64,000 nucleotides of DNA from a virus (lineage: Duplodnaviria > Caudoviricetes): positions 128,001 to 192,000 of IMG/VR virus record IMGVR_UViG_3300021514_000002; one strand, written 5' to 3'. Below are positions 6,936 to 21,140 of this stretch, in pieces; position 1 is the first letter of the stretch; each line of letters begins with the position of its first letter. Under the pieces are notes generated by a model that saw nothing but the letters and a program-made list of their open reading frames with translations, had not been told where the DNA came from and made no database searches. The translations under genes and the position numbers were made by a program.

Positions 6936-6964
6936 ATTATAACCTAATCCTAATAAGTTGTCAA
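6936..6964 (-). promoter_or_regulatory. Phage sigma70-type promoter, near-identical to the cas promoter
   Basis: TTGACA-17 bp-TATAAT; 32/33 nt identical to 17301-17333. Confidence 0.8.
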
Positions 6965-6979
6965 GTCTTGCCTAACTCA

Positions 6980-7264
6980 TCACGGTTCGTCCTTATTGAA
7001 ATATTCAAACGCAGCATTACATACAGCTTCGTTGATTGTTTCTTCTTCTTCATACATTATTTGCATTAAAGCACCCCAATCATCCCAAGTTAAACTTTCT
7101 TTCAGCTTCTCCATTATCTCAACCATTTGGTCGTTGTTTGTTAATGGGTAGTATCTGCTGCCACCAAACGTTGGCGAACCTAAATATAATATTCCGTCCG
7201 TAGTGATATAGTTAGGGAAAAGTTCCATCCCTTCTGCAATCACTTTTAACTGTTCTGGTTTCAT
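6980..7264 (-). CDS. Hypothetical protein (94 aa)
   Basis: Stop/start overlap with the queC-like gene. Confidence 0.6.
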   Translation of the reverse strand: MKPEQLKVIAEGMELFPNYITTDGILYLGSPTFGGSRYYPLTNNDQMVEIMEKLKESLTWDDWGALMQIMYEEEETINEAVCNAAFEYFNKDEP

Positions 7265-7857
7265 TCTATGCCTAACTCATTATCGTGCCTTTTGCACGAT
7301 GAACATTCACCACAGTTTCCTTTCTTACCAGATTCACAGTAATAAATTAGGTTCATTATTTGCTCATAGTATATAAAATCTTTCAAATCGTTAATTAAAT
7401 CTACCTTAGTTTTCCATTCGTATGGAAATACCAATGGCACAGTGTCACCATCACATACTAGATTATTCATCGCATCGTAAACAGCATGGATTTCGGTCTT
7501 GTAGTGCCATGCAGCATCGTATTTAATAAAGGCAATATTGACGCCACAATGAGTATTAATATTGGCGATATAAGCCACTGCAGTAATCCAAAGGGCAGGT
7601 TGAACATACATCGTTTTAGTTACCGAAATAGTATTGTATCCAAAACTATGTTCATTAACAATTTTCCCTTTAAGGTTAGCATCGTTAATAATACATCTTA
7701 ATTTTCTAATGGCGGTTTTTTCATGTCTTTGTTGATTTTCATTATTTTTCAAATCAACATACATAATGTCAATATCGCCTTGGGTTAACAATTCAATAAC
7801 CAGACAGGTACTATCCGTTCCACCTGACCATAATACTAATGGACGTTTATCACACAT
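7261..7857 (-). CDS. QueC-like (7-cyano-7-deazaguanine synthase-like) PP-loop ATPase
   Basis: PP-loop LWSGGTDST and C-terminal C-x7-CGECSSC Zn motif. Confidence 0.7.
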   Translation of the reverse strand: MCDKRPLVLWSGGTDSTCLVIELLTQGDIDIMYVDLKNNENQQRHEKTAIRKLRCIINDANLKGKIVNEHSFGYNTISVTKTMYVQPALWITAVAYIANINTHCGVNIAFIKYDAAWHYKTEIHAVYDAMNNLVCDGDTVPLVFPYEWKTKVDLINDLKDFIYYEQIMNLIYYCESGKKGNCGECSSCKRHDNELGIE

Positions 7858-8702: not shown

Positions 8703-10079
8703 TTATATTAATTTTACAATTTTTGATTCTATTTTTTCTACGCATTGTTTTAAAACATATTCAGGATCGCCTATATTATCCATTATAATAGCTTGTAATG
8801 TTGCAGGTGCCATATGTTTATTAAATTCTATAAACGATGGTATTACAAAATCAGGATAAAAATTATCAAAAAATCCCTTAAAACAATCATGTGTTAAATA
8901 TCCAATTTCAACACTTATATTGAACCTACCTCTGCGTGTCAGTGCAGAATCTAACTGGTTTATGTGATTTGTAGTCGCAATCAATATTCGACCATCAGAT
9001 GCCATTATACCATCTATTACATTTAATAATCCAGATAATGATAACATTGAAAATTCCTCGCTATTTTGTTCATCATTGCTATCTCTACTTTTAGTTACTG
9101 AATACGTATCAATATCTTCTATTAATAATAAAGAATTTCTAGGTAAAAGAGCGAGAGCTTCTTCTAATGTGTCATCCCTTATACCAGATAAACTTAAAAT
9201 GTACAGGGGTTTTTCAAATTTATCGCATAACGCTCTAACTAAAGACGTTTTCCCCGTACCAGGCATACCATATAAAATTACCCCTGTGCGGTAGGGAATC
9301 CCATGTTTCATATACCATTCCCGACTATTTAAAAACGTATCTATATGTTCGACTATTTCATTTTTCGTTTCTTTTGGTAAAATAACTGAACTGAATTTTC
9401 GTCGAGGTTGTCTAGCGTAAGATTTCCAATAACCATCTTTGTTGCCATTCCATTTGTATATTTGGGTCAAGTCCTTATCTACTTTTTTAGGGGTAATTTC
9501 AATAAGTAGTTGATGAAACTTTATTTGGGATCTTCCAAATGTAGTTAAATATATAGATTCTTTAACTTCTTTCGTATTATTGGCGTCTTTTAGTTCCCTG
9601 ACAAATCTAAATGGTTTCCCATCAAACATGAAATAATGAGTACCATATCCAGATGATATATCTAATCCACGGTCAGATGTATCACCATACCAAGAATAAA
9701 TTTGATTTTTTGCTACAAGAGTTCTGGATTTTGAACTTCGGCCAGTAGTATGGTACCAACGTAAAAAATTATCATAGACATCATCTACGTTGTTTAATGT
9801 CAATGTTACTGTCGTTTGTTTTACTACCATTTCCCAAATTGATTTTGGAATTCCCCGTGCAAAAAATGAAGCTGACCCTAATGCCCAAAGACTTATTGCG
9901 CCTGCGACCATAGGATTTTGTTTATTTAACCATACAAACAACGAACTTCCAATTAATTTAATATTGTCAAAACTCGTATAAGTGTAATATATTAATAAAC
10001 ATATCATACTTAATAACAATACAATGATTACGTTTATACGCGAAAATAACTTAATTTCATTTGTCTGCATTTTTAACAC
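8703..10079 (-). CDS. BCS1-like AAA+ ATPase with N-terminal membrane anchor
   Basis: Walker A GMPGTGKTS, Walker B LLIEDID, LSLSGLLNVIDG, ATTNH..LDSALTRRGRF; hydrophobic N-terminus. Confidence 0.85.
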   Translation of the reverse strand: MLKMQTNEIKLFSRINVIIVLLLSMICLLIYYTYTSFDNIKLIGSSLFVWLNKQNPMVAGAISLWALGSASFFARGIPKSIWEMVVKQTTVTLTLNNVDDVYDNFLRWYHTTGRSSKSRTLVAKNQIYSWYGDTSDRGLDISSGYGTHYFMFDGKPFRFVRELKDANNTKEVKESIYLTTFGRSQIKFHQLLIEITPKKVDKDLTQIYKWNGNKDGYWKSYARQPRRKFSSVILPKETKNEIVEHIDTFLNSREWYMKHGIPYRTGVILYGMPGTGKTSLVRALCDKFEKPLYILSLSGIRDDTLEEALALLPRNSLLLIEDIDTYSVTKSRDSNDEQNSEEFSMLSLSGLLNVIDGIMASDGRILIATTNHINQLDSALTRRGRFNISVEIGYLTHDCFKGFFDNFYPDFVIPSFIEFNKHMAPATLQAIIMDNIGDPEYVLKQCVEKIESKIVKLI

Positions 10080-10271: not shown

Positions 10272-10908
10272 TTAACACGCTTCGCCTGTCTTAGCAGTCC
10301 AACTCCGTGCCAATGTTTCCACCTCTACGTTTGGTGTAAATTTGCCCGTTTCTACAAAAATCCAAAAACCTGCGTATGGCTTCTGAACTTCTAGGCGGTT
10401 TGTCTTTTTCCACCATAACATCCCTGTTTCTACATCTACCAAAGCATGATAGATATAATTTAAATAAGAGTTGCCCGTTGTTTTCGTTAATTCAAAATTT
10501 GTAATTTTCATTGTATCCCCCTTTTATGCGTTAAGTGTAAGTTAATTCAGGGATAATGTCAAGACTTTAACCTAAAACCGCTTCAGGTTTCTAGACAATA
10601 CCACTGGCCTCGGCTTCAAGCAATACCAATATTCCCTTAGCCGTAATTGTAGGATGTGTCATGAATGCCTGTAGCCGTTCACTGCCTATATCAATCAGGT
10701 CGAGGCTGGCCAATGAAAAAAGCTCGTCAAAGCTACAATCTGCTTTTTTGCAAATGTCCGCACCTTCCATGTCAGGCGTATCCCGTATCACACGAAGGGC
10801 AATAAATTGTTCATATCCAAGATTCATTATAACCCCTTTAAATTTAGAATTTGTAAAACAGCGAATATAATAACCTAATTGATATAAGATGTCAAGGCAA
10901 AACTTCAT
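10272..10908 (-). other. Two hypothetical CDS (10272-10511, 10591-10908)
   Basis: Co-directional ORFs downstream of the HNH gene. Confidence 0.6.
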
Positions 10909-11395
10909 TTGACATTCCGCGAAAACGCTCTAATAAAAATAATAAAGAAGCCAACCCAAACAAAAAGTGCGCATGTCTTACTTTTGAATTCGCTTCTTTA
11001 ATTTCGCGTTCTTTGATACTACGTTGTTCTTTTAATTGTTTCCATTTTGCATAACGTTCTGGATTAGATGTTACCCACTTAAATTGATTATGTGATATTG
11101 TTGCGCGTTTACTATTGCAACCATTACATGCACAAGCTATATTAGACTTATGAAGCGTGCCACCTTGCGATCTCGGTAATAAGTGTTCTATGGTAGCAGT
11201 ACGGTGAAATACTTTATGAAATATTTTACGATCAGTCTCAAACCACAAATTCATTTCTCTTTCACACCAATAACATTTACCATCTTGTTTTTCGTATAGG
11301 TTTTTAAGTCGGCGCATATTACTCGACATCTTGAACGTTTTCTTACCAAGTTCAATCTGTAACATGAAATCACGTTGAAATGTAATACCACACAT
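10892..11395 (-). CDS. HNH endonuclease (McrA/HNH_5-like)
   Basis: CYWC...TIEHLLPRSQGG...NIACACNGCNSKR. Confidence 0.85.
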   Translation of the reverse strand: MCGITFQRDFMLQIELGKKTFKMSSNMRRLKNLYEKQDGKCYWCEREMNLWFETDRKIFHKVFHRTATIEHLLPRSQGGTLHKSNIACACNGCNSKRATISHNQFKWVTSNPERYAKWKQLKEQRSIKEREIKEANSKVRHAHFLFGLASLLFLLERFRGMSNEVLP

Positions 11396-11512: not shown

Positions 11513-12022
11513 TTTGCCTTCTGCCTATACGGCAGTGAACAACTTTGAAGCTATCAAGCTTTTAAGTATTAACTTCTAAGCTGCCTATACGGCAGTGAAC
11601 CTAATAATGTAGCAGTAATTGTTTTGTCGTTCCTTCTAAGCTGCCTATACGGCAGTGAACATGACACAACAGCGAATACACTCGTCTATGTTTCTTCTAA
11701 GCTGCCTATACGGCAGTGAACTGATAGCCGCATACCTAGTGGGTTTTTTGAAAGCTTCTAAGCTGCCTATACGGCAGTGAACATACCATTGGATAGTGGA
11801 ACGGAAAGAGGCACCTTCTAAGCTGCCTATACGGCAGTGAACCTTCCCATACTTCCAACACTTTTAGTTTCGCACTTCTAAGCTGCCTATACGGCAGTGA
11901 ACGATAGAACCTATTCCAGTTATTCCAGTTAATCCTTCTAAGCTGCCTATACGGCAGTGAACATTAGTTACCCATAGGTCTTCTGCACTTGACGCTTCTA
12001 AGCTGCCTATACGGCAGTGAAC
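11513..12022 (-). CRISPR. Type I-F CRISPR array: 9 repeats (last degenerate), 8 spacers of 32-33 nt
   Basis: 28-nt repeat GTTCACTGCCGTATAGGCAGCTTAGAAG at 11995, 11935, 11875, 11815, 11755, 11694, 11633, 11573 (left coordinates); degenerate trailer repeat 11513-11540. Confidence 0.99.
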
Positions 12023-12157
12023 AGGGTGAATTTTACTAAAAACTTAACCAAAACAAACGGTTATAGCGTTTTATACTATTTGACCAATAAAAATCATGTG
12101 ATTCATAACGTATTGATAATGTTAACATTTTATAAATAAAATATTTCATTGGTCAAA
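12023..12157 (-). promoter_or_regulatory. CRISPR leader with IHF sites and a 10-bp inverted repeat
   Basis: AT-rich; WATCAANNNNTTR match at 12106-12118 (minus), 1-mismatch site at 12051-12063 (plus); TTTGACCAAT/ATTGGTCAAA at 12079-12088 and 12148-12157. Confidence 0.75.
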
Positions 12158-12704
12158 ACCAAGGTATAGTGGCATTTTTACTTAAACCAAAGCAATCAAA
12201 TTGTCCGACAGTTTGAACTTTTGTTAATTCTCCAAAAGTCAAATATCTGCGATGTTTATGTTTATTAGAATTACTTACTAATTCCATATATGGTTCATCA
12301 AGCCCATGGTTAAACATTTTATTTTTATACAATTTTATATCAGCAGTGGATATTGAGTTTCTTTTAATTAACCGTCGTAATTTAGCTTCAGTCATATTAG
12401 ATTGCTTACGAGAAATTATTCTATAAAGGCCGTTATCTGGTACTTTACGTATAATACCAATTAAACAATATTGCGCCAAATTGCCCAACCATTTAGTATT
12501 TTGGAAGTTTGTTAGTTCGTTTTCATTACCATGAATTCTTAACGTTTTCCCAAGTACTATATTATAATCAGGGAAACTAACGCCAATATTAGATGATTTT
12601 AACGAAAACAATCTCCAATGAAATTTAGTATAAACTTCATTAAGTAATACATTTTGACGAAATTTCTTATTAGGTTGTATTAATATATCGATATAATGTT
12701 TCAT
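12153..12704 (-). CDS. cas6f: CRISPR endoribonuclease Cas6f (Csy4)
   Basis: 183 aa; IGVSFPDY...LRIHG, Arg-rich EAKLRRLIKR helix, C-terminal FDCFGLSKNATIPWF; abuts the I-F array. Confidence 0.95.
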   Translation of the reverse strand: MKHYIDILIQPNKKFRQNVLLNEVYTKFHWRLFSLKSSNIGVSFPDYNIVLGKTLRIHGNENELTNFQNTKWLGNLAQYCLIGIIRKVPDNGLYRIISRKQSNMTEAKLRRLIKRNSISTADIKLYKNKMFNHGLDEPYMELVSNSNKHKHRRYLTFGELTKVQTVGQFDCFGLSKNATIPWF

Positions 12705-13720
12705 TAGTTTCTCCTTGGACGAGTATCAATATTAGAGACATAAGCCAAGCCTTTTTTACCCAAAGGGAAACTTGACACGCCAGCATTTTCAATCATAGTT
12801 TTTATTTCTGTTGCGTCTTCACGATTAATATCTATATAAATTTCAAGTGTTCCACTGGCTTTGGTTAGCATTGAAACTACTTCACCTTCACCTTTTATTC
12901 TTTCTTTTCGGATATACGGATTACCATATATTTTCTTTTTTTCCCCCGTGGTAAAACGATCCATAAAATCTTTTTTTGTAAAAAGACGTTTAGATATACC
13001 AGATATAACGCCTGTTTTGGTAATAGCGGTAGATATATCAAATGATTCGGAAAGTCTATTTAATTGCAAATAAATGGCAGAACAATATACATTTTCAATA
13101 ACAATTTCGCCTTTATTATTAACATAATTAGTGTCATTAAATTGTGTATCTAAATATTGTATGACTTTTTTTGCCTTACCTTGAACTATAATAGATTTAA
13201 TCTTTCTTAATTCATCAAACTTTTCACAAATTACAATCGGATCAAGTTTAATTAATTTGTCTACTTTGGTATCATCTAAAATGAAAGAATATAATTCATC
13301 AGTATCTAATGCTAATACCCCCCATAATTCTTGTGAATAATCTGATTGAAAAATAACGTCATCGGTCTTAATCATCCCTGTAAAAGAATTTTGATCAGTA
13401 CTGCCTGAAATATTTCGAATATAAGTCATTTCATTAGTTAATTCTGGATTATCCATAAATGTAACTAACTTTTCAATGTCTCGGAAATAATAATCACTTG
13501 TGCTACGGGAATGGTATAACTTTCTTTGATCACCAATAAGACGATTAATTACCCCCATCACAGTATTCAGTGTGATTTCCCGACGAATAAAATTCTTCGA
13601 GGTCTTTAAATTGGTCATTGAAGCAATAAATTTACGCCCCTTTTTAGGTAATGCCACATTATTGTCGCCATCCAGAAACGAATTTCTCCACGATGAATCA
13701 TAATTAATTAATATTTTCAT
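12704..13720 (-). CDS. cas5fv: Type I-F2 (I-Fv) Cas5fv
   Basis: 338 aa; [43 protein letters not shown] resemble Shewanella putrefaciens Cas5fv as recalled; position between cas7 and cas6. Confidence 0.9.
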
Positions 13721-13729
13721 ATAAACACC

Positions 13730-14677
13730 CTATTTGGCGTAGAAATAAGATGCAAATTCAGATTCAGGCATCTCCGAGATTTCAGCTTCATTGCGCTTAA
13801 TACGCATCATTTTATTACTATCATTGTAATCAATTAAAATTTCATCAACATACATATATGATTTTGCTTGACGGATAGATAGTTCACTGATCATTTGTAA
13901 AGTGTATTCAATTAACGCTTTTATTGCATCATTATTTAATAAAATACCTACTTCACCCTCTTCAAATATTGTACCTTCACGCACATAGTTCTCATGAAAG
14001 ATAGCCATTGAATTTAATTCAGGATTAAGTGATTTAATATAATTTTGAATAGTTTTCGCAATTGTTTCACCTTCACCCTCTTTGATGGTCATGCTTGCCC
14101 TGCCAAATTTATTATCAAGTGAGATGAATTGTAATTGTTCGATACTAATGGAACCGTAAGAGAGATATTTAGTATCACCAAACGTAGTCTTTGAAAAGAA
14201 CGAAGAGCTATCACGCTCACCAGCTTGTGTCATTTGTTCAAAATTTCCATTGCCTAATTGGTCTACAAAATCTTCCATTAATAACGGGCTGGTTCGTTTA
14301 CGTTGACTAGAGGGTACAACGTAACCACGAATTAATCCTGTCATAGAGGCAAGTACTTCTAATAAGTTATTTTTCGCGGCGTAATGCAAGTCAAATGCTT
14401 GATCACGAAATAAATGATGTCTAACACAGTTTTGACTAATATATAAAGGATTTTCTTTGAAATCAATATCGGTAGCTTCCTTTTTATATTTGTAACCTGT
14501 TTCATCTTTGATCTTTCCTGTTAAATTAGAATAACCACGCAATTTTGGCATTGTATGATTGTTAAAGGTTTTCCCATCATTACCTGTTAAGGTTGTTGGT
14601 CCATTCCAATTAACAACACCGTGTCCTAACGCCGTAATCTTAAAATCAACACTTTTGATGCCTGTTACTTTTTTCAT
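13730..14677 (-). CDS. cas7fv: Type I-F2 (I-Fv) backbone Cas7fv
   Basis: 315 aa; [24 protein letters not shown]..., [20 protein letters not shown] closely resemble S. putrefaciens Cas7fv as recalled. Confidence 0.92.
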
Positions 14678-14681
14678 TTTT

Positions 14682-17267
14682 TCACCCTATTAATATATTT
14701 GAAATTGAACCAATCGGCTGCTTGTCACAAATTGCATAATAAATAGCTGATTGATGTGCTTTTTGTTCGCCACCAATGGCGTTCAAATCTTCTTTTGTGT
14801 AACTTAGATAAATTGGTGTATCTGGATTTCGTGCAGCATTTAATAATATATCTTCATTATACGTTTTTTTCGTTTTTTTGATATTATGATGTTTAGTTAA
14901 CATATATGATAACAGATTATTCTCAGCATTACCATACCCTTTTATTAACCCAACACTTGCTGTTAATCCTATTGTAGTTTGGGTATGATCAGTGTCTTCT
15001 GTATAAGCATACTCATTTGGAAATTCATATTTTTTCGAATTTACTACGCGGCAAATTGCCATTTGTACAAATCTGTTATCACCACGTAAAGAATTATTTT
15101 TAATTTTACTCGTCTGCTTGTTTAATGAAACTTTTTTATGAGGGTAAAATAATGGATCTATTATATTTTGGTTTATAAGTGTTGCACTGTCTTTTAACAT
15201 TAATAATAATTCTTCTTTAATTTCGTTTAAAGATATTTCGTCCTTATAGAATTTTTTATATAACGCATAAAGATAATTAATATCAACAACATTACTGTTA
15301 ACATTGGAACATAAAAAATTATACCATGCTTTAGTGCTTTTTAATAAATTCTGCGTTCTTAAAAACCAACCGGTTTGTCCATTATCTATATTTTCAGGTA
15401 CTACCGTAAGGTATTCATTGATTGTGTTATTTTTACCAAAACGATCTAAACGACCTAACCGCTGTAACCAATTCTCTGCGGTTGTTAATTCTGTTATCAT
15501 GTTATCGCAGCTAATGTTTAATGAGGATTGAATGATAGGTCCACTACGCATTATATCGAATTCACTATTACCACCTTCCTTGAAATTATCCATAATCGTA
15601 TTAAATAATGAAAGTTTATCAGCTTTTTTGAATTTAGAATGAAACAATATACCATTTTCTTGATGCATATTTTTAATAAAACCGAGTTGTGCAGTAATTG
15701 CGGTATTACTAATCACAAACGTATTCTTTTTGAATATTTTTTGTGTTAATAATGAATTATTCACATCATCAATTTTAAAATTTACACGATATTTAGATTT
15801 GTTAAAGCTTTTAATATCAAATATATCACTTGAATCAATTTTTAAGACTTTATTCACAAAATAGTAATTGGGTGTAGCAGATACCAATAATGTATTTGCC
15901 TTATCTCCTTGTAACTTTTTGTTTTCAATTAGTTCTGCAAACAACAAATTAAAGGCTGGCATTGTAATTAATTCATGATATTCATCGAAAATGACATGTG
16001 AATTCATTAAAGTTATTAATGCAGTTATATCAGAATGTGTGGTAATTGTGTTTATCGCGTGATCTATCGTAGTAATAACAATATCCCCTGTGAACATATT
16101 ATGTTCTGCGGTTTCCTGCTCAATGCCATTAGTTTTTGTATTTTTGTACTCACCTGTATAAATTTCTATTCGACTGTTTTTTAAATAATCCAATTGTGAC
16201 AGATCGTGATATAGTCCAAGACACACGTTTACCCGAGGAGCTATCCATATAATTTTCTTAACATTACTGTTGAATGCCCATTCTAGGGCAATTTTAGTTT
16301 TACCACAACCCGCTGGCCCTTCAAGAACTGCAATATCGTTAACATCTTGACATTGTTTTGCCACTACCGCTTGTGCTTTGTTTTGTTGACTATCTGGGTA
16401 TAATATAGTAAAGCCTTCAAGACATTGCGCTATTTCAGTTTGAAGCGTACTATTATTATCCAAATGTTTATTGGTTAAAAAGTTTAAACTTTTATCGTTT
16501 ATACGTGTTGTCAATTCACAAGCTGAAAGTGTTGACACAATTCTATCAGCAGTTATAATAGCAGCCCTGATGATATTTTTATCAGCGTTTTCTTTAATTT
16601 CCCTAGTATAATCATCAATAATATCATTGTTTTCCGAATATTCTTTATAAAGGAGATTTTGTTTTTTTAAAGCGTATACAGCATCCTCAGTTATATCCGT
16701 TACTCGTTTCGGTAATTTGATAACATTATTAGAATAAGTTAAGAGTGAAGAATTTACACTTTCCAATATTTGACTGGCTTCTTTTAGAAATAATTCCATA
16801 TTCATATCAGCATTAAAAGAATTATTGACTTTATTGTAAATTTCAGCTTGATTTTTGTAATTATTCTTTCTTATAGGTTTACTGTGATGCCAGTAAATAC
16901 CATGTGTCGCATAATCAAATTGTTTTGGATTTAATCTTTTATCATTTCGATCATTTAGTAAATTAAATAGAAATAGTGAAATTTCGTTGTGTCTTGGATG
17001 CTTTTCAAAAGAAAATTTGCCCCTGTTGATATGTACCCCATCATTAACATCCACTGCTTTTGAACGAGAGTTTAACCAGTTTTGAAATGCAGGATCTAAT
17101 TTACCGATGTCGTGGAAGCAACCCGCCACCAATGTAGCATATGCTAATTTACTATTATTAGTAAGTTTATTAACAATATCATATCCAATCCACCCAACAG
17201 CAAATAAATGATCGGCAAGTAAATGTTGTTTATCATTAGCATAATATGATATTAAATTATTGGTCAC
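14682..17267 (-). CDS. cas3: Cas3 HD nuclease-helicase, apparently without an N-terminal Cas2 domain
   Basis: HD motifs HLLADH, FHDIGK, WHH, TAD; SF2 motifs [23 protein letters not shown]; GTG start with the first HD-domain His about 15 aa in. Confidence 0.95.
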
Positions 17268-17303
17268 TATTCTGAGTATCCTACTTCTGTTTAAGTTGAC
17301 AAT

Positions 17304-17332
17304 ATTATAACCTAATTCTAATAAGTTGTCAA
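17304..17332 (-). promoter_or_regulatory. Phage-type sigma70 promoter of the cas operon
   Basis: TTGACA-ACTTATTAGAATTAGGT(17)-TATAAT, 36 nt upstream of the cas3 start. Confidence 0.85.
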
Positions 17333-17580
17333 GCCATGACTAATTCATTTTCAACTTGTTTTAATTTCTGATGATTATCAATGCGCATTAGGTTCTTTTC
17401 AGACTGTACATATACACCGCTTTCAGAATACCTTCCACCATACCTATACAATGTAAGTTGAAGAACATCTACCTCCCACAAATCAACAGCTATTAAATCG
17501 TCTAATCCACCTAAAAAATTACCCACTGTCACACACTTACCAATATTTTCAGGGCGTCCACTATTAATCACTAAGGCCAA
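17329..17580 (-). CDS. Hypothetical protein (83 aa; start may extend upstream)
   Basis: VINSGRPENIGKCVTV phage-type small protein; occupies the position where cas1 would be expected. Confidence 0.6.
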   Translation of the reverse strand: MALVINSGRPENIGKCVTVGNFLGGLDDLIAVDLWEVDVLQLTLYRYGGRYSESGVYVQSEKNLMRIDNHQKLKQVENELVMA

Positions 17581-18219: not shown

Positions 18220-18627
18220 ATGGTTAAACGTAACTCTGTATTTAATATAGAAGTACCACATTTAGCGATGCTTTTATTTGAATTGTATGAATATGATAAA
18301 GTTGATATTGATGCTTTTGCTAATGACGTAAAGAAACATATATTGCCAAAAAATGACAAGACTAACATTAATGATATTGTACATAGAATTAGAAATAAAT
18401 CACATGTAGATAAAATAGATTTACCAAAAGGATATTATGTAAGATCTGATGGACAATTAAATACTTTTTGGTTGGATAAATCATACACGTATATGCAATA
18501 CGAAACTAGTAGATGGGGGTATAGTTGGACGCGAAAACAAATACTACAAATAAACAATTTCGTTAAAAATAATGGATGGCAGATAATTACAGTCATACTC
18601 ATTATTATAGGTATTATTCGCAAATAA
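18220..18627 (+). CDS. Hypothetical protein with C-terminal TM helix
   Basis: Hydrophobic tail WQIITVILIIIGII. Confidence 0.65.
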   Translation: MVKRNSVFNIEVPHLAMLLFELYEYDKVDIDAFANDVKKHILPKNDKTNINDIVHRIRNKSHVDKIDLPKGYYVRSDGQLNTFWLDKSYTYMQYETSRWGYSWTRKQILQINNFVKNNGWQIITVILIIIGIIRK

Positions 18628-18666
18628 CCTAATTCTTATAAGATGTCAAGCCTTAAAGACTTCAAT

Positions 18667-19410
18667 TCAAATTTCGTAACTATCATATAGTTGGGTATGT
18701 AAATCCTCCAACATAGAAACCATACAATCTAATCGGATATCAGACTTTGATGTTTCACGCAAGGTCTTGACATCCAGTAGGATTTCAGCACTCAGCACCC
18801 GCTTGTTCTTTAATGTAGTCACTTTAAAGAATGTGCTAACCAAGCCACTATCCCTAACATATTCATTATGCTTCAAAAAATCAGCCGCTGATTTTTTGTC
18901 TGTAAAATTGACAATAAACCGCTTCCCGCTTCCCTCTACATAATTACAGACATCATCACACATAATTTCGTTTAAGTAATATAGGTTAGCATAGTTCTCA
19001 CGATGGATATCATTCAAGGCTTTTTCCACTGTAATATAGGGGGGTATGTTAATAGGAGTTCTTGTATTTTTAGCAACAACGTTCTTTGGTTTAAACTTAT
19101 ATAAGAAGGGGAAATGTCCTATGATTCCCAATAATTCCGTCTGGCGAATAATTAAGTCTTTGGCAACTTTGAATATGGCTATGTCAAACCATTCAGTATG
19201 GCCATCGCCTTTATATATCCTTGTATTGTATTCTTTGAAATGTAGATGGCAGAAGTTTTCTACAGCTGTCGCGTTTTCGCATTCAAACATATAGGTTTTA
19301 TCATAGTTAATTTCCCCAACTACGGTGACTAGTCTTGATCTAGGGTTATTAGAAAACCCAATCTTGAAAGCGGTTTTTTCAACATTAGGGGCAAAGTATA
19401 GGTATGACAT
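18667..19410 (-). CDS. GIY-YIG family (T5orf172-like) protein
   Basis: YLYF..KIGFSNNPRSRL...ENFCHLHF...GHTEWF. Confidence 0.75.
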   Translation of the reverse strand: MSYLYFAPNVEKTAFKIGFSNNPRSRLVTVVGEINYDKTYMFECENATAVENFCHLHFKEYNTRIYKGDGHTEWFDIAIFKVAKDLIIRQTELLGIIGHFPFLYKFKPKNVVAKNTRTPINIPPYITVEKALNDIHRENYANLYYLNEIMCDDVCNYVEGSGKRFIVNFTDKKSAADFLKHNEYVRDSGLVSTFFKVTTLKNKRVLSAEILLDVKTLRETSKSDIRLDCMVSMLEDLHTQLYDSYEI

Positions 19411-19685: not shown

Positions 19686-20437
19686 ACAATAAACACCTCT
19701 AATACACTTCCCAGTTCAAACAGTATTTCATTAACATTAGGAAATAGCCATGTATTTTCCGCCTGTTTATTACCATAATGATTTAACATGTCAAATACAT
19801 GACCTGAGAAATCTGGATACCAATGGAAGATTTTAACAACATCTATCTGTTTATCCCTTAGTTCTTTCATAAGGGTACTAACACCTTGCTTGTGTATCAT
19901 TATGGAAAGAAGGTTAGGGGATTGTACGCTGGTCTTATACAGTATCAACAGTGGGTCAATATTACGATTGGCTTCAATACGATGTTTAATATCTTTGCCT
20001 AAGAAGTTCTTCCAGCCCCCATTGACATAGAAAGAAGGGTAACGTCGGGCAGGATTTTTAGGGATTCCTTTAGGGATTAGACCATCGTCAAAGGCTTCTT
20101 TATACTGATCAACGTTTTTAAATTGCATCGTTTGTATTAGATTTACCGCCTCCCAATATTTCATAAGATCTTTTTCACGTACAGCTTTAGGACTATCTGC
20201 ATCGTAAACATTGTCAGTTTCAAGGAATGTTTTCCAGTCTATCCATTCAGGATATACCCTTTCTGGTCGTGTGGGAATACCCCCAGGTTTATAGTCACGT
20301 ACCCATGCACGATACTGGCGAAAGGTTTTAATCCCTGCCATATTAGTTAAGTCTTTACACATATGATAAGGTATCCACCTCCAGTCCATGGGTTTACTCT
20401 TTAGGACTATCTTAGGGATGGTTGTTTTCTTACCCAT
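19682..20437 (-). CDS. Integrase-repeat-unit-like protein
   Basis: Two GIPxxPxxxY...WxxFL repeats. Confidence 0.55.
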   Translation of the reverse strand: MGKKTTIPKIVLKSKPMDWRWIPYHMCKDLTNMAGIKTFRQYRAWVRDYKPGGIPTRPERVYPEWIDWKTFLETDNVYDADSPKAVREKDLMKYWEAVNLIQTMQFKNVDQYKEAFDDGLIPKGIPKNPARRYPSFYVNGGWKNFLGKDIKHRIEANRNIDPLLILYKTSVQSPNLLSIMIHKQGVSTLMKELRDKQIDVVKIFHWYPDFSGHVFDMLNHYGNKQAENTWLFPNVNEILFELGSVLEVFIV

Positions 20438-21140
20438 TATCAGGATTCCATGTATTACCTTTTTGAAGGTTTTCAGAAGCGGTTATAATTTGTAGGTTAT
20501 ATTCAACATGAAGTCCACAGACATTCACACCTTGTAATGGAACAATATGGTCAACGTGAAATATTTCATTACCACCAGCGATTCTGGTACAAATATTTAA
20601 ATCTTGACAATCTTCATAAATGTCATGGATTATTTTTATATTTGACCATATTGGTCTGGCTTGTATTCTCCATGCTCTACGAGAAGCACAGTATGCATTA
20701 TTTTGTGCTTTATTATTTTGTCTATATAATCGTTGTTGTTTATTAAGATGGTTTTTGTTGTGTTTTTTGTATTTTCCACTACACAATTTTATCTTATCAC
20801 GATTACATATATTATATTCTTTATTGTATTCGGATATTTTTTCGTAATTCTGTTCAACATATTTTTTATGTTGTTTGTTCACTTCCTTCTTGTTATTCTG
20901 ATACCATTCTTTTTGTTGCATCATTAAATATTCTTTATTCTTATTTCTATATCCTTTATTGTATTGTGCTATTTTTTTCTTATTATTTGCCTTATATTGT
21001 TTATCATATGTTTTACTACATCCCGCACAACAACCATTAATCACTCTTCTTTCAGTAATATGTCCTTGGGGACATTCTTTTCCTGTAAAGTACCAAATTA
21101 AACCTGTTTCTTTTGCTTCTTTTCTTGTTATCACTTTCAT
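20430..21140 (-). CDS. HNH homing endonuclease
   Basis: N-terminal ITRKEA..GL..YFTGKEC; C-terminal HVDHIVPLQGVNVCGLHVEYNLQII..SEN. Confidence 0.85.
   Translation of the reverse strand: MKVITRKEAKETGLIWYFTGKECPQGHITERRVINGCCAGCSKTYDKQYKANNKKKIAQYNKGYRNKNKEYLMMQQKEWYQNNKKEVNKQHKKYVEQNYEKISEYNKEYNICNRDKIKLCSGKYKKHNKNHLNKQQRLYRQNNKAQNNAYCASRRAWRIQARPIWSNIKIIHDIYEDCQDLNICTRIAGGNEIFHVDHIVPLQGVNVCGLHVEYNLQIITASENLQKGNTWNPDNG

Follow-up and report, generated by a model that had tools for sequence, protein, structure and literature searches.

A type I-F2 CRISPR-Cas effector locus without adaptation genes in a jumbo myovirus from a hydrothermal vent

Introduction

Can a phage carry a type I-F2 (I-Fv) CRISPR-Cas system from which every part for spacer acquisition is missing, and if so, where was that part lost and against what would the remainder be directed? 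The question is raised by a 64,000-nt stretch of viral DNA, positions 128,001 to 192,000 of the IMG/VR record IMGVR_UViG_3300021514_000002, which as a whole is referred to here as the window. A first-pass annotation of the window, made from the sequence alone, had proposed that a large phage had captured the compact I-F2 effector and trimmed it to four cas genes with a leader and an array. In this work the locus was followed up by computational analysis. We hold with fairly high confidence that it is a phage-borne, interference-only type I-F2 system, a reading which builds on gene identity, intact motifs, missing adaptation parts, phage context and promoter. The locus is read on the minus strand, and coordinates are those of the window throughout unless marked as genome.

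Results

The effector is of type I-F2

The earlier assignment to type I-F2 was borne out both by hidden Markov model profiles and by end-to-end alignments to the chains of PDB 5O6U. Cas7fv scored 475 bits against the NCBIfam equivalog NF040577, for which the cut-off is 200, and its residues 1-315 align to residues 1-315 of chain C (564 bits). Cas5fv matched Pfam Cas5fv_helical (PF20158; 208 bits) and the PADLOC Cas5fv profile (494 bits) and aligns end to end with chain F (415 bits); kept in it is the glutamine equivalent to Q113, the residue of Cas5fv which distorts the first base pair in the protospacer-adjacent motif (PAM) (PMC6546366). Cas6f matched Pfam Cas_Csy4 (169 bits) and TIGR02563 (145 bits), aligns end to end with chain B (165 bits) and retains the catalytic His29. 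Cas3 matched the PADLOC Cas3fv profile with 1056 bits, in addition to Pfam Cas3_HD, DEAD and Cas3-like_C_2. Its motifs are all intact (HD at 52, GCGKT at 320, DEYH at 428, SAT at 463 and QRLGR at 602), and in the tree it is placed among the I-F2 Cas2/3 proteins, i.e., in the Cas3fv clade.

The locus thus holds Cas7fv, a helical Cas5fv without Cas8f, Cas6f together with a 28-nt hairpin repeat, and Cas3fv; what it does not hold is the Cas2/3 fusion with an adjacent cas1. Because of the Cas protein matches, the repeat hairpin and the lack of room for Cas8f we regard the effector, as judged from sequence, as a bona fide type I-F2 Cascade plus Cas3, the system as a whole being non-canonical. As for interference at a GG PAM, what can be seen of it is the conserved PAM-contacting glutamine and the helical domain of Cas5fv.

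The adaptation parts are missing

The absence of cas1 had been noted in the first-pass annotation, and the present searches agree with it and add that the Cas2 domain of the Cas2/3 protein is missing as well. The PADLOC Cas3fv match covers profile positions 106-941 of 951, leaving positions 1-105 unmatched, and the alignment with the 977-aa Cas2/3 of Thalassotalea begins at residue 111 of the latter. PF21384 (Cas3_I-F_Cas2), which is present in all full-length relatives, has no match in the phage Cas3. That cas1 or cas2 might lie elsewhere in the genome was also checked, and none was found in the complete sequence: six-frame searches of all 363,531 bp gave no PF01867 (Cas1), PF09827 (Cas2) or PF21384 and no homologue of an I-F2 Cas1, and relaxed tblastn for cas1 or Cas2 remnants returned noise only (best E 0.03-0.35, with none near cas3). 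Nor does the 363-kb genome hold a second array with the repeat of this locus. Having neither Cas1 nor the Cas2 domain, the phage is unable to add spacers by itself.

The locus lies in a complete phage genome

The record, 363,531 bp long and taken from the metagenome of a hydrothermal vent, is a T4-like jumbo myovirus with a CheckV completeness of 100%. Its ends (genome 1-131 and 363401-363531) are identical over 131 bp, pointing to circular closure of the assembly, although the record is classed as linear in IMG/VR. Matches of the large open reading frames (ORFs) to PHROG families include the baseplate wedge, head-tail adaptor, tail fibres, tail sheath and portal, and further the DNA polymerase, ribonucleotide reductase, RIIA and an SbcC-like nuclease. 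For the portal, identity amounts to 52-53% with two jumbo myoviruses of Xanthomonas, XacN1 and Xoo-sp13, the nearest isolates, and the portals of other T4-like jumbo phages are farther away. The earlier placement of the locus among the genes of a large phage therefore holds for a complete phage genome with both virion and replication genes. The possibility of a bacterial chromosome or a misassembly was checked and is very unlikely, since independent contigs bridge both sides: in Logan contigs of the source run, 17.4 kb and 11.3 kb in length, the array is continuous with phage genes downstream, and the array plus the cas genes with phage genes upstream. In a second, independent vent study (2018) pieces of cas3, of cas5fv and of the flanking phage genes were found with zero differences. 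One contig of run X2, from this second vent metagenome, joins position 11513 to position 17145 inside cas3, with 25 unmatched letters between them and a shorter side of 20 nt; this joint could stem from a deletion variant or be artefactual.

Layout, promoter and neighbouring genes

The order cas3-cas7fv-cas5fv-cas6f-leader-array, with all genes open and coupled, had been read correctly in every element, each of which was found in its place on the minus strand between 11513 and 17332 (Table 1). The junctions are TGA-4 nt-ATG between cas3 and cas7fv, TAG-9 nt-ATG between cas7fv and cas5fv, and an overlapping TAATG between cas5fv and cas6f, with a purine-rich ribosome-binding site 5' of the downstream ORF at each of them. 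From the promoter to the leader there are four ORFs only, and there is neither space nor an ORF for Cas8f/Csy1.

Table 1. Features of the I-F2 locus in window coordinates
Feature	Coordinates	Strand	Description
promoter	17304..17332	-	TTGACAACTTATTAGAATTAGGTTATAAT, TTGACA-17-TATAAT, consensus sigma-70 type, 12/12 match
cas3 (Cas3fv)	14682..17267	-	861 aa; HD nuclease and superfamily 2 helicase, without N-terminal Cas2 domain
cas7fv	13730..14677	-	315 aa; Cascade backbone subunit
cas5fv	12704..13720	-	338 aa; predicted CRISPR RNA (crRNA) 5' handle binding and PAM reading via the helical domain
cas6f/csy4	12153..12704	-	183 aa; predicted pre-crRNA endoribonuclease
CRISPR leader	12023..12152	-	130 nt, AT-rich
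CRISPR array	11513..12022	-	nine type I-F repeats, each of 28 nt, with eight spacers 32-33 nt long

The promoter ends 36 nt 5' of the cas3 start. Upstream of it, at the position expected for cas1, is an 83-aa ORF (17329-17580) with a weak match to a PHROG family of unknown function; both the promoter and this ORF had been noted as standing in the place of cas1, and both are present, the promoter being of the phage's own type. Perfect TTGACA-N16-18-TATAAT promoters occur 27 times in the genome against 0.8 expected, mostly at genome 134-208 kb, around the locus. The cas3 promoter is identical at 28 of 29 positions to the phage promoter at 6964, and it contains the phage-enriched word AATTAGGTTA (23 copies against 2.6 expected), which is often found within the perfect promoters. 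We infer that the 74-kb promoter-rich stretch holding the locus is an early-gene region. Perfect promoters were seen at 6964, 11453, 17332, 23199, 27576 and other positions, and a 51-nt direct repeat, 78% identical between 17307-17357 and 18624-18674, spans the promoter region and forms a second promoter cassette 1.3 kb upstream.

Three homing-type endonuclease genes lie around the locus, namely an HNH gene (10892-11395), a T5orf172/GIY-YIG-like gene (18667-19410) and an endonuclease VII/HNH-like gene (20430-21140), a setting which suggests that the region is prone to recombination. A BCS1-like AAA ATPase of 458 aa (BCS1_N + AAA; 8703-10079) is encoded two genes downstream of the array. A QueC-like gene (PHROG 1550, Pfam QueC) at 7261-7857 may hint at 7-deazaguanine modification of the phage DNA.

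Leader, repeat and array

The repeat is GTTCACTGCCGTATAGGCAGCTTAGAAG, present in nine copies spaced 60-61 nt apart, of which the leader-distal one is degenerate after position 20. As RNA it folds into the Cas6f hairpin, with a 5-bp stem, a 5-nt loop and an 8-nt 3' tail (-8.6 kcal/mol). The leader compares with leaders of 130-131 nt in bacterial I-F2 loci and has blocks in common with them at conserved distances from repeat 1: ATCAA (within TATCAATACGTTA), GGT-AAA and TTGTT. The sequence TATCAATACGTTA resembles WATCAANNNNTTR, which we take to be the IHF consensus. A weaker promoter-like site, TTGACC-18-TAAAAT, is located at 12156-12127.

At 28 of 28 positions the phage repeat agrees with those in I-F2 arrays from Oxalobacter formigenes (39 and 20 copies) and in a short Klebsiella array (L025, L026 and L027), far more distant though the Cas proteins are. 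As evidence for a host this match was rejected, the Oxalobacter Cas7fv being 67% identical to that of the phage versus 82% for the marine relatives, and the spacers of the Oxalobacter and Klebsiella arrays have no target in the phage (best match T-rich, 23/32). On this comparison the exact match reflects repeat conservation. Low-depth array contigs from runs X1 and X2, both of them vent metagenomes, carry a repeat identical at 27 of 28 positions with unrelated 32-nt spacers (window 11695-11903). They were rejected as variants of the phage array, the one-base repeat mismatch and the low depth assigning them to other organisms, and they indicate that organisms bearing type I-F systems coexist with the phage.

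Origin of the module and loss of Cas2 and cas1

The phage Cas7fv is 80-82% identical to those of marine gammaproteobacteria (Thalassotalea, Colwellia, Vibrio and Pseudoalteromonas), Cas5fv is about 60% identical to its best relatives, and for Cas3, which has a long branch and a deviant composition, identity is 59% with the best relative and 45-50% with the others. The GC content of the cas genes is 28-33%, and at third codon positions (GC3) 20-26%, against 36% for the genome. The divergence of Cas3 and Cas5fv together with the GC3 values indicates that the capture was not recent. That all ORFs and motifs have nevertheless remained intact argues for selection and is the main argument for function; the locus is a real phage-borne I-F2 interference module, and probably a functional one.

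The 120 best homologues of Cas3 were surveyed, a maximum-likelihood tree was built, and three loci with a short Cas3 (L022, L023 and L024) were inspected. Short forms of 848-927 aa made up 23 of these 120, some of which may be gene-calling artefacts, such as P0217, which is identical to the full-length P0218; all short forms except P0147 (927 aa) are without PF21384. They are scattered over the tree, where going by the well-supported branches no fewer than 17 changes of length are needed. In L023 a cas3 of 867 aa is followed by cas7fv, cas5fv and cas6f, with a nine-repeat array upstream in the opposite orientation and no cas1, and in L024 the same four genes, again with no cas1, come after ordinary bacterial genes. 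In L022 (5235-19455) a Cas2-less I-F2 four-gene module, its cas7fv split in two, is located between cas2/3 and csy1 of a complete I-F1 locus. The phage Cas3 is sister to P0121 (SH-aLRT 98), a full-length Cas2/3 beside cas1 in a bacterial chromosomal context. As placed in this tree, Cas2 and cas1 have been lost repeatedly in the family, with a separate loss on the lineage leading to the phage copy. Cas2-less, cas1-less Cas3fv recurs in loci of bacterial and metagenomic origin, so the trimming may have preceded the capture. The earlier claim that the phage did the trimming goes further than the data: cas1-less and Cas2-less modules recur in bacteria, though the nearest Cas3 relative is full-length and stands beside cas1, and the trimming may have taken place either in the phage itself or in a donor that has not been sampled.

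Discussion

For expression, cleavage activity, PAM and biological targets we infer the following from the characterised Shewanella system. Host RNA polymerase would transcribe the operon from the consensus sigma-70 promoter, a type which the phage uses 27 times, and Cas6f would cut the array transcript at the base of each hairpin to give crRNAs of about 60 nt, each composed of an 8-nt CUUAGAAG handle, a spacer and a 20-nt hairpin. On each crRNA, Cas5fv, about six copies of Cas7fv and Cas6f would assemble into a Cas8-less minimal Cascade. Cas5fv would then read a GG PAM, and the R-loop would recruit the stand-alone Cas3fv, which would nick and degrade the target DNA. The eight guides would be fixed, unless a host type I-F integrase acts on the conserved leader in trans. 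By analogy with ICP1 and the huge phages, on which a role against rival phages, satellites, plasmids or the host rests, the probable targets are mobile elements that compete with the phage, or else DNA of the host. Self-targeting is excluded, as the eight spacers match the phage's own genome over no more than 14 nt.

Several results weigh against a working module with such a role. The earlier annotation had named competing phages, satellites, plasmids or host genes as targets, and for none of the spacers was a protospacer found. Searched as a whole, the array had no protospacer among GenBank phages, the one match of 25 nt (E = 0.5) falling in a low-complexity part of spacer 2 and being taken as chance, and among PLSDB plasmids it gave only repeat-driven matches to other I-F arrays. 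Spacers 1, 2, 3, 5, 6 and 7 had no match in IMG/VR, nor had spacers 1 and 4 in JGI metagenome contigs, the queries in both cases being written with N at every sixth position. With no protospacer in any of the collections searched, the biological role is unsupported by data. The locus was also found in no RNA run. Finally, a Cas3 without a Cas2 domain or a Cas1 partner might be less active, because Cas1 has been reported to take part in interference in the type I-F system of ICP1 (bioRxiv 10.1101/2024.03.09.584257).

Three other explanations have to be weighed against an interference-only module with fixed guides. It is possible, though doubtful, that the array is not frozen and that spacers are gained in trans via the Cas1-Cas2/3 integrase of a type I-F host, the phage keeping the effector and the leader-array. 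Plasmid systems of type IV-A3 have been documented to acquire spacers in trans (bioRxiv 10.1101/2023.06.23.546257), a precedent which lends it some support, and it would account for a leader that keeps the bacterial I-F2 length, an IHF-consensus-like site and three further common blocks despite the divergence of the cas genes. The standard I-F repeat, identical to those of the Oxalobacter and Klebsiella arrays, and the 27/28-repeat arrays with other spacers in both vent metagenomes holding the phage point the same way, as does L022, in which the I-F1 locus around a Cas2-less I-F2 module supplies cas1 and cas2/3. However, the conservation of the leader may equally well come from a promoter function, and the phage's own array is invariant in the data seen, the variant contigs belonging to other organisms. 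An extension of this idea, which we put forward as speculation and consider unlikely, is that the four-gene modules with a stand-alone Cas3fv are recurrent mobile effector-only forms of I-F2 which use resident I-F adaptation machinery, and perhaps resident arrays, with the phage copy running on an early promoter and being reloaded in trans by host Cas1-Cas2/3 during infection. If this were true, the immune system of the host would itself be writing the memory of the phage's weapon.

It is less probable still that the locus is a passenger, a recently captured bacterial fragment that sits neutrally in a plastic region rich in homing endonucleases, holds its donor's spacers and has no role for the phage. 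The HNH, T5orf172 and endonuclease VII-like genes on its flanks, spacers that match nothing searched and the occurrence of adaptation-less I-F2 fragments in bacteria are all compatible with this, but the capture was not recent by Cas3 (59%), Cas5fv (~60%) and GC3 (20-26%), all ORFs and catalytic motifs are intact, a phage-type consensus promoter occupies the very place in which cas1 and the Cas2 domain would be expected, and the sequence is identical in the second study. That the locus is a chimera of the assembly, or belongs to a bacterium or a prophage and was miscalled as viral, as the linear classification in IMG/VR and the 80-82% identity of Cas7fv to bacterial proteins might suggest, is extremely improbable in view of the 131-bp identical ends and CheckV completeness of 100%, the virion and replication genes throughout the genome, the bridging of both junctions by the contigs of an independent assembler and a cas promoter of the phage's own type; nor were housekeeping genes of bacteria seen in the neighbourhood. 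The interference-only module thus remains the reading that we prefer.

With this locus, the range of CRISPR-Cas found on phages comes to include the minimal Cas8-less I-F2, a rare subtype for phage, and it suggests that mobile elements in hydrothermal-vent communities engage in CRISPR-mediated conflict. It presents a natural Cas3fv working, if it does work, without a Cas2 domain and without Cas1, which bears on the control of the Cas2/3 nuclease by Cas1 and Cas2 in type I-F; given the reported role of Cas1 in interference in ICP1, a Cas3 free of both is mechanistically interesting. With four genes in about 5.2 kb the effector is among the most compact of type I, and the related Shewanella system already serves to make large deletions in genomes (PMC12714560). 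That Cas2 and cas1 have been lost repeatedly in this family suggests that evolution regularly arrives at effector-only modules.

Comparison with known systems

No other Cas7fv was found in 50,697 GenBank phages by DNA or protein search, nor in 2.9 million IMG/VR contigs by protein and invariant-motif searches, of which the pattern search would miss divergent Cas7fv-like proteins; a literature search returned no paper describing I-F2 in a phage or linking I-F2 to jumbo phages. In huge and metagenomic phages (PMC7162821, PMC12676247) there are, as here, effectors and arrays on a large phage without Cas1, Cas2 and Cas4. Systems without these three proteins are reported to make up 83.6% of phage CRISPR-Cas systems, with I-C, I-F and II-C as the commonest subtypes (PMC12676247; also PMC7162821). 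The novelty implied by the first-pass annotation was overstated in this respect, since these surveys already report that most phage systems are adaptation-less and that I-F is common.

Vibrio phage ICP1 likewise encodes a type I-F system with Cas6f and I-F repeats, and this system is aimed at a host-borne anti-phage element (PMC10161043, PMC9040626). It is, however, of type I-F1, with Cas8f, Cas5f, Cas7f, cas1, a Cas2/3 fusion and its own spacer acquisition, whereas the phage studied here has I-F2 without an adaptation module. The modules L022, L023 and L024 share the four genes, a Cas3 of 867-887 aa without PF21384 and the lack of an adjacent cas1 of their own; they differ in that their contexts are bacterial or unassigned and that their Cas3 proteins are on other branches of the tree. 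L023 also has a nine-repeat array, but upstream and in the opposite direction. The I-F2 system of Shewanella putrefaciens CN-32 (PDB 5O6U, 5O7H and 9G44; PMC4937334, PMC12714560) has the same Cas8-less three-protein Cascade, the same gene order cas3-cas7fv-cas5fv-cas6f-array, the 28-nt I-F repeat class, 32-nt spacers and the PAM-distorting glutamine. In contrast to it, the phage locus lacks cas1 and a CasDinG gene, its Cas3 is without the Cas2 domain of about 105 residues (861 aa against ~970-980 aa), and it is carried on a jumbo phage under a phage consensus promoter. There is ample earlier documentation of phage CRISPR-Cas systems that lack adaptation genes; what is new is I-F2 on a phage and, with it, a stand-alone Cas3fv.

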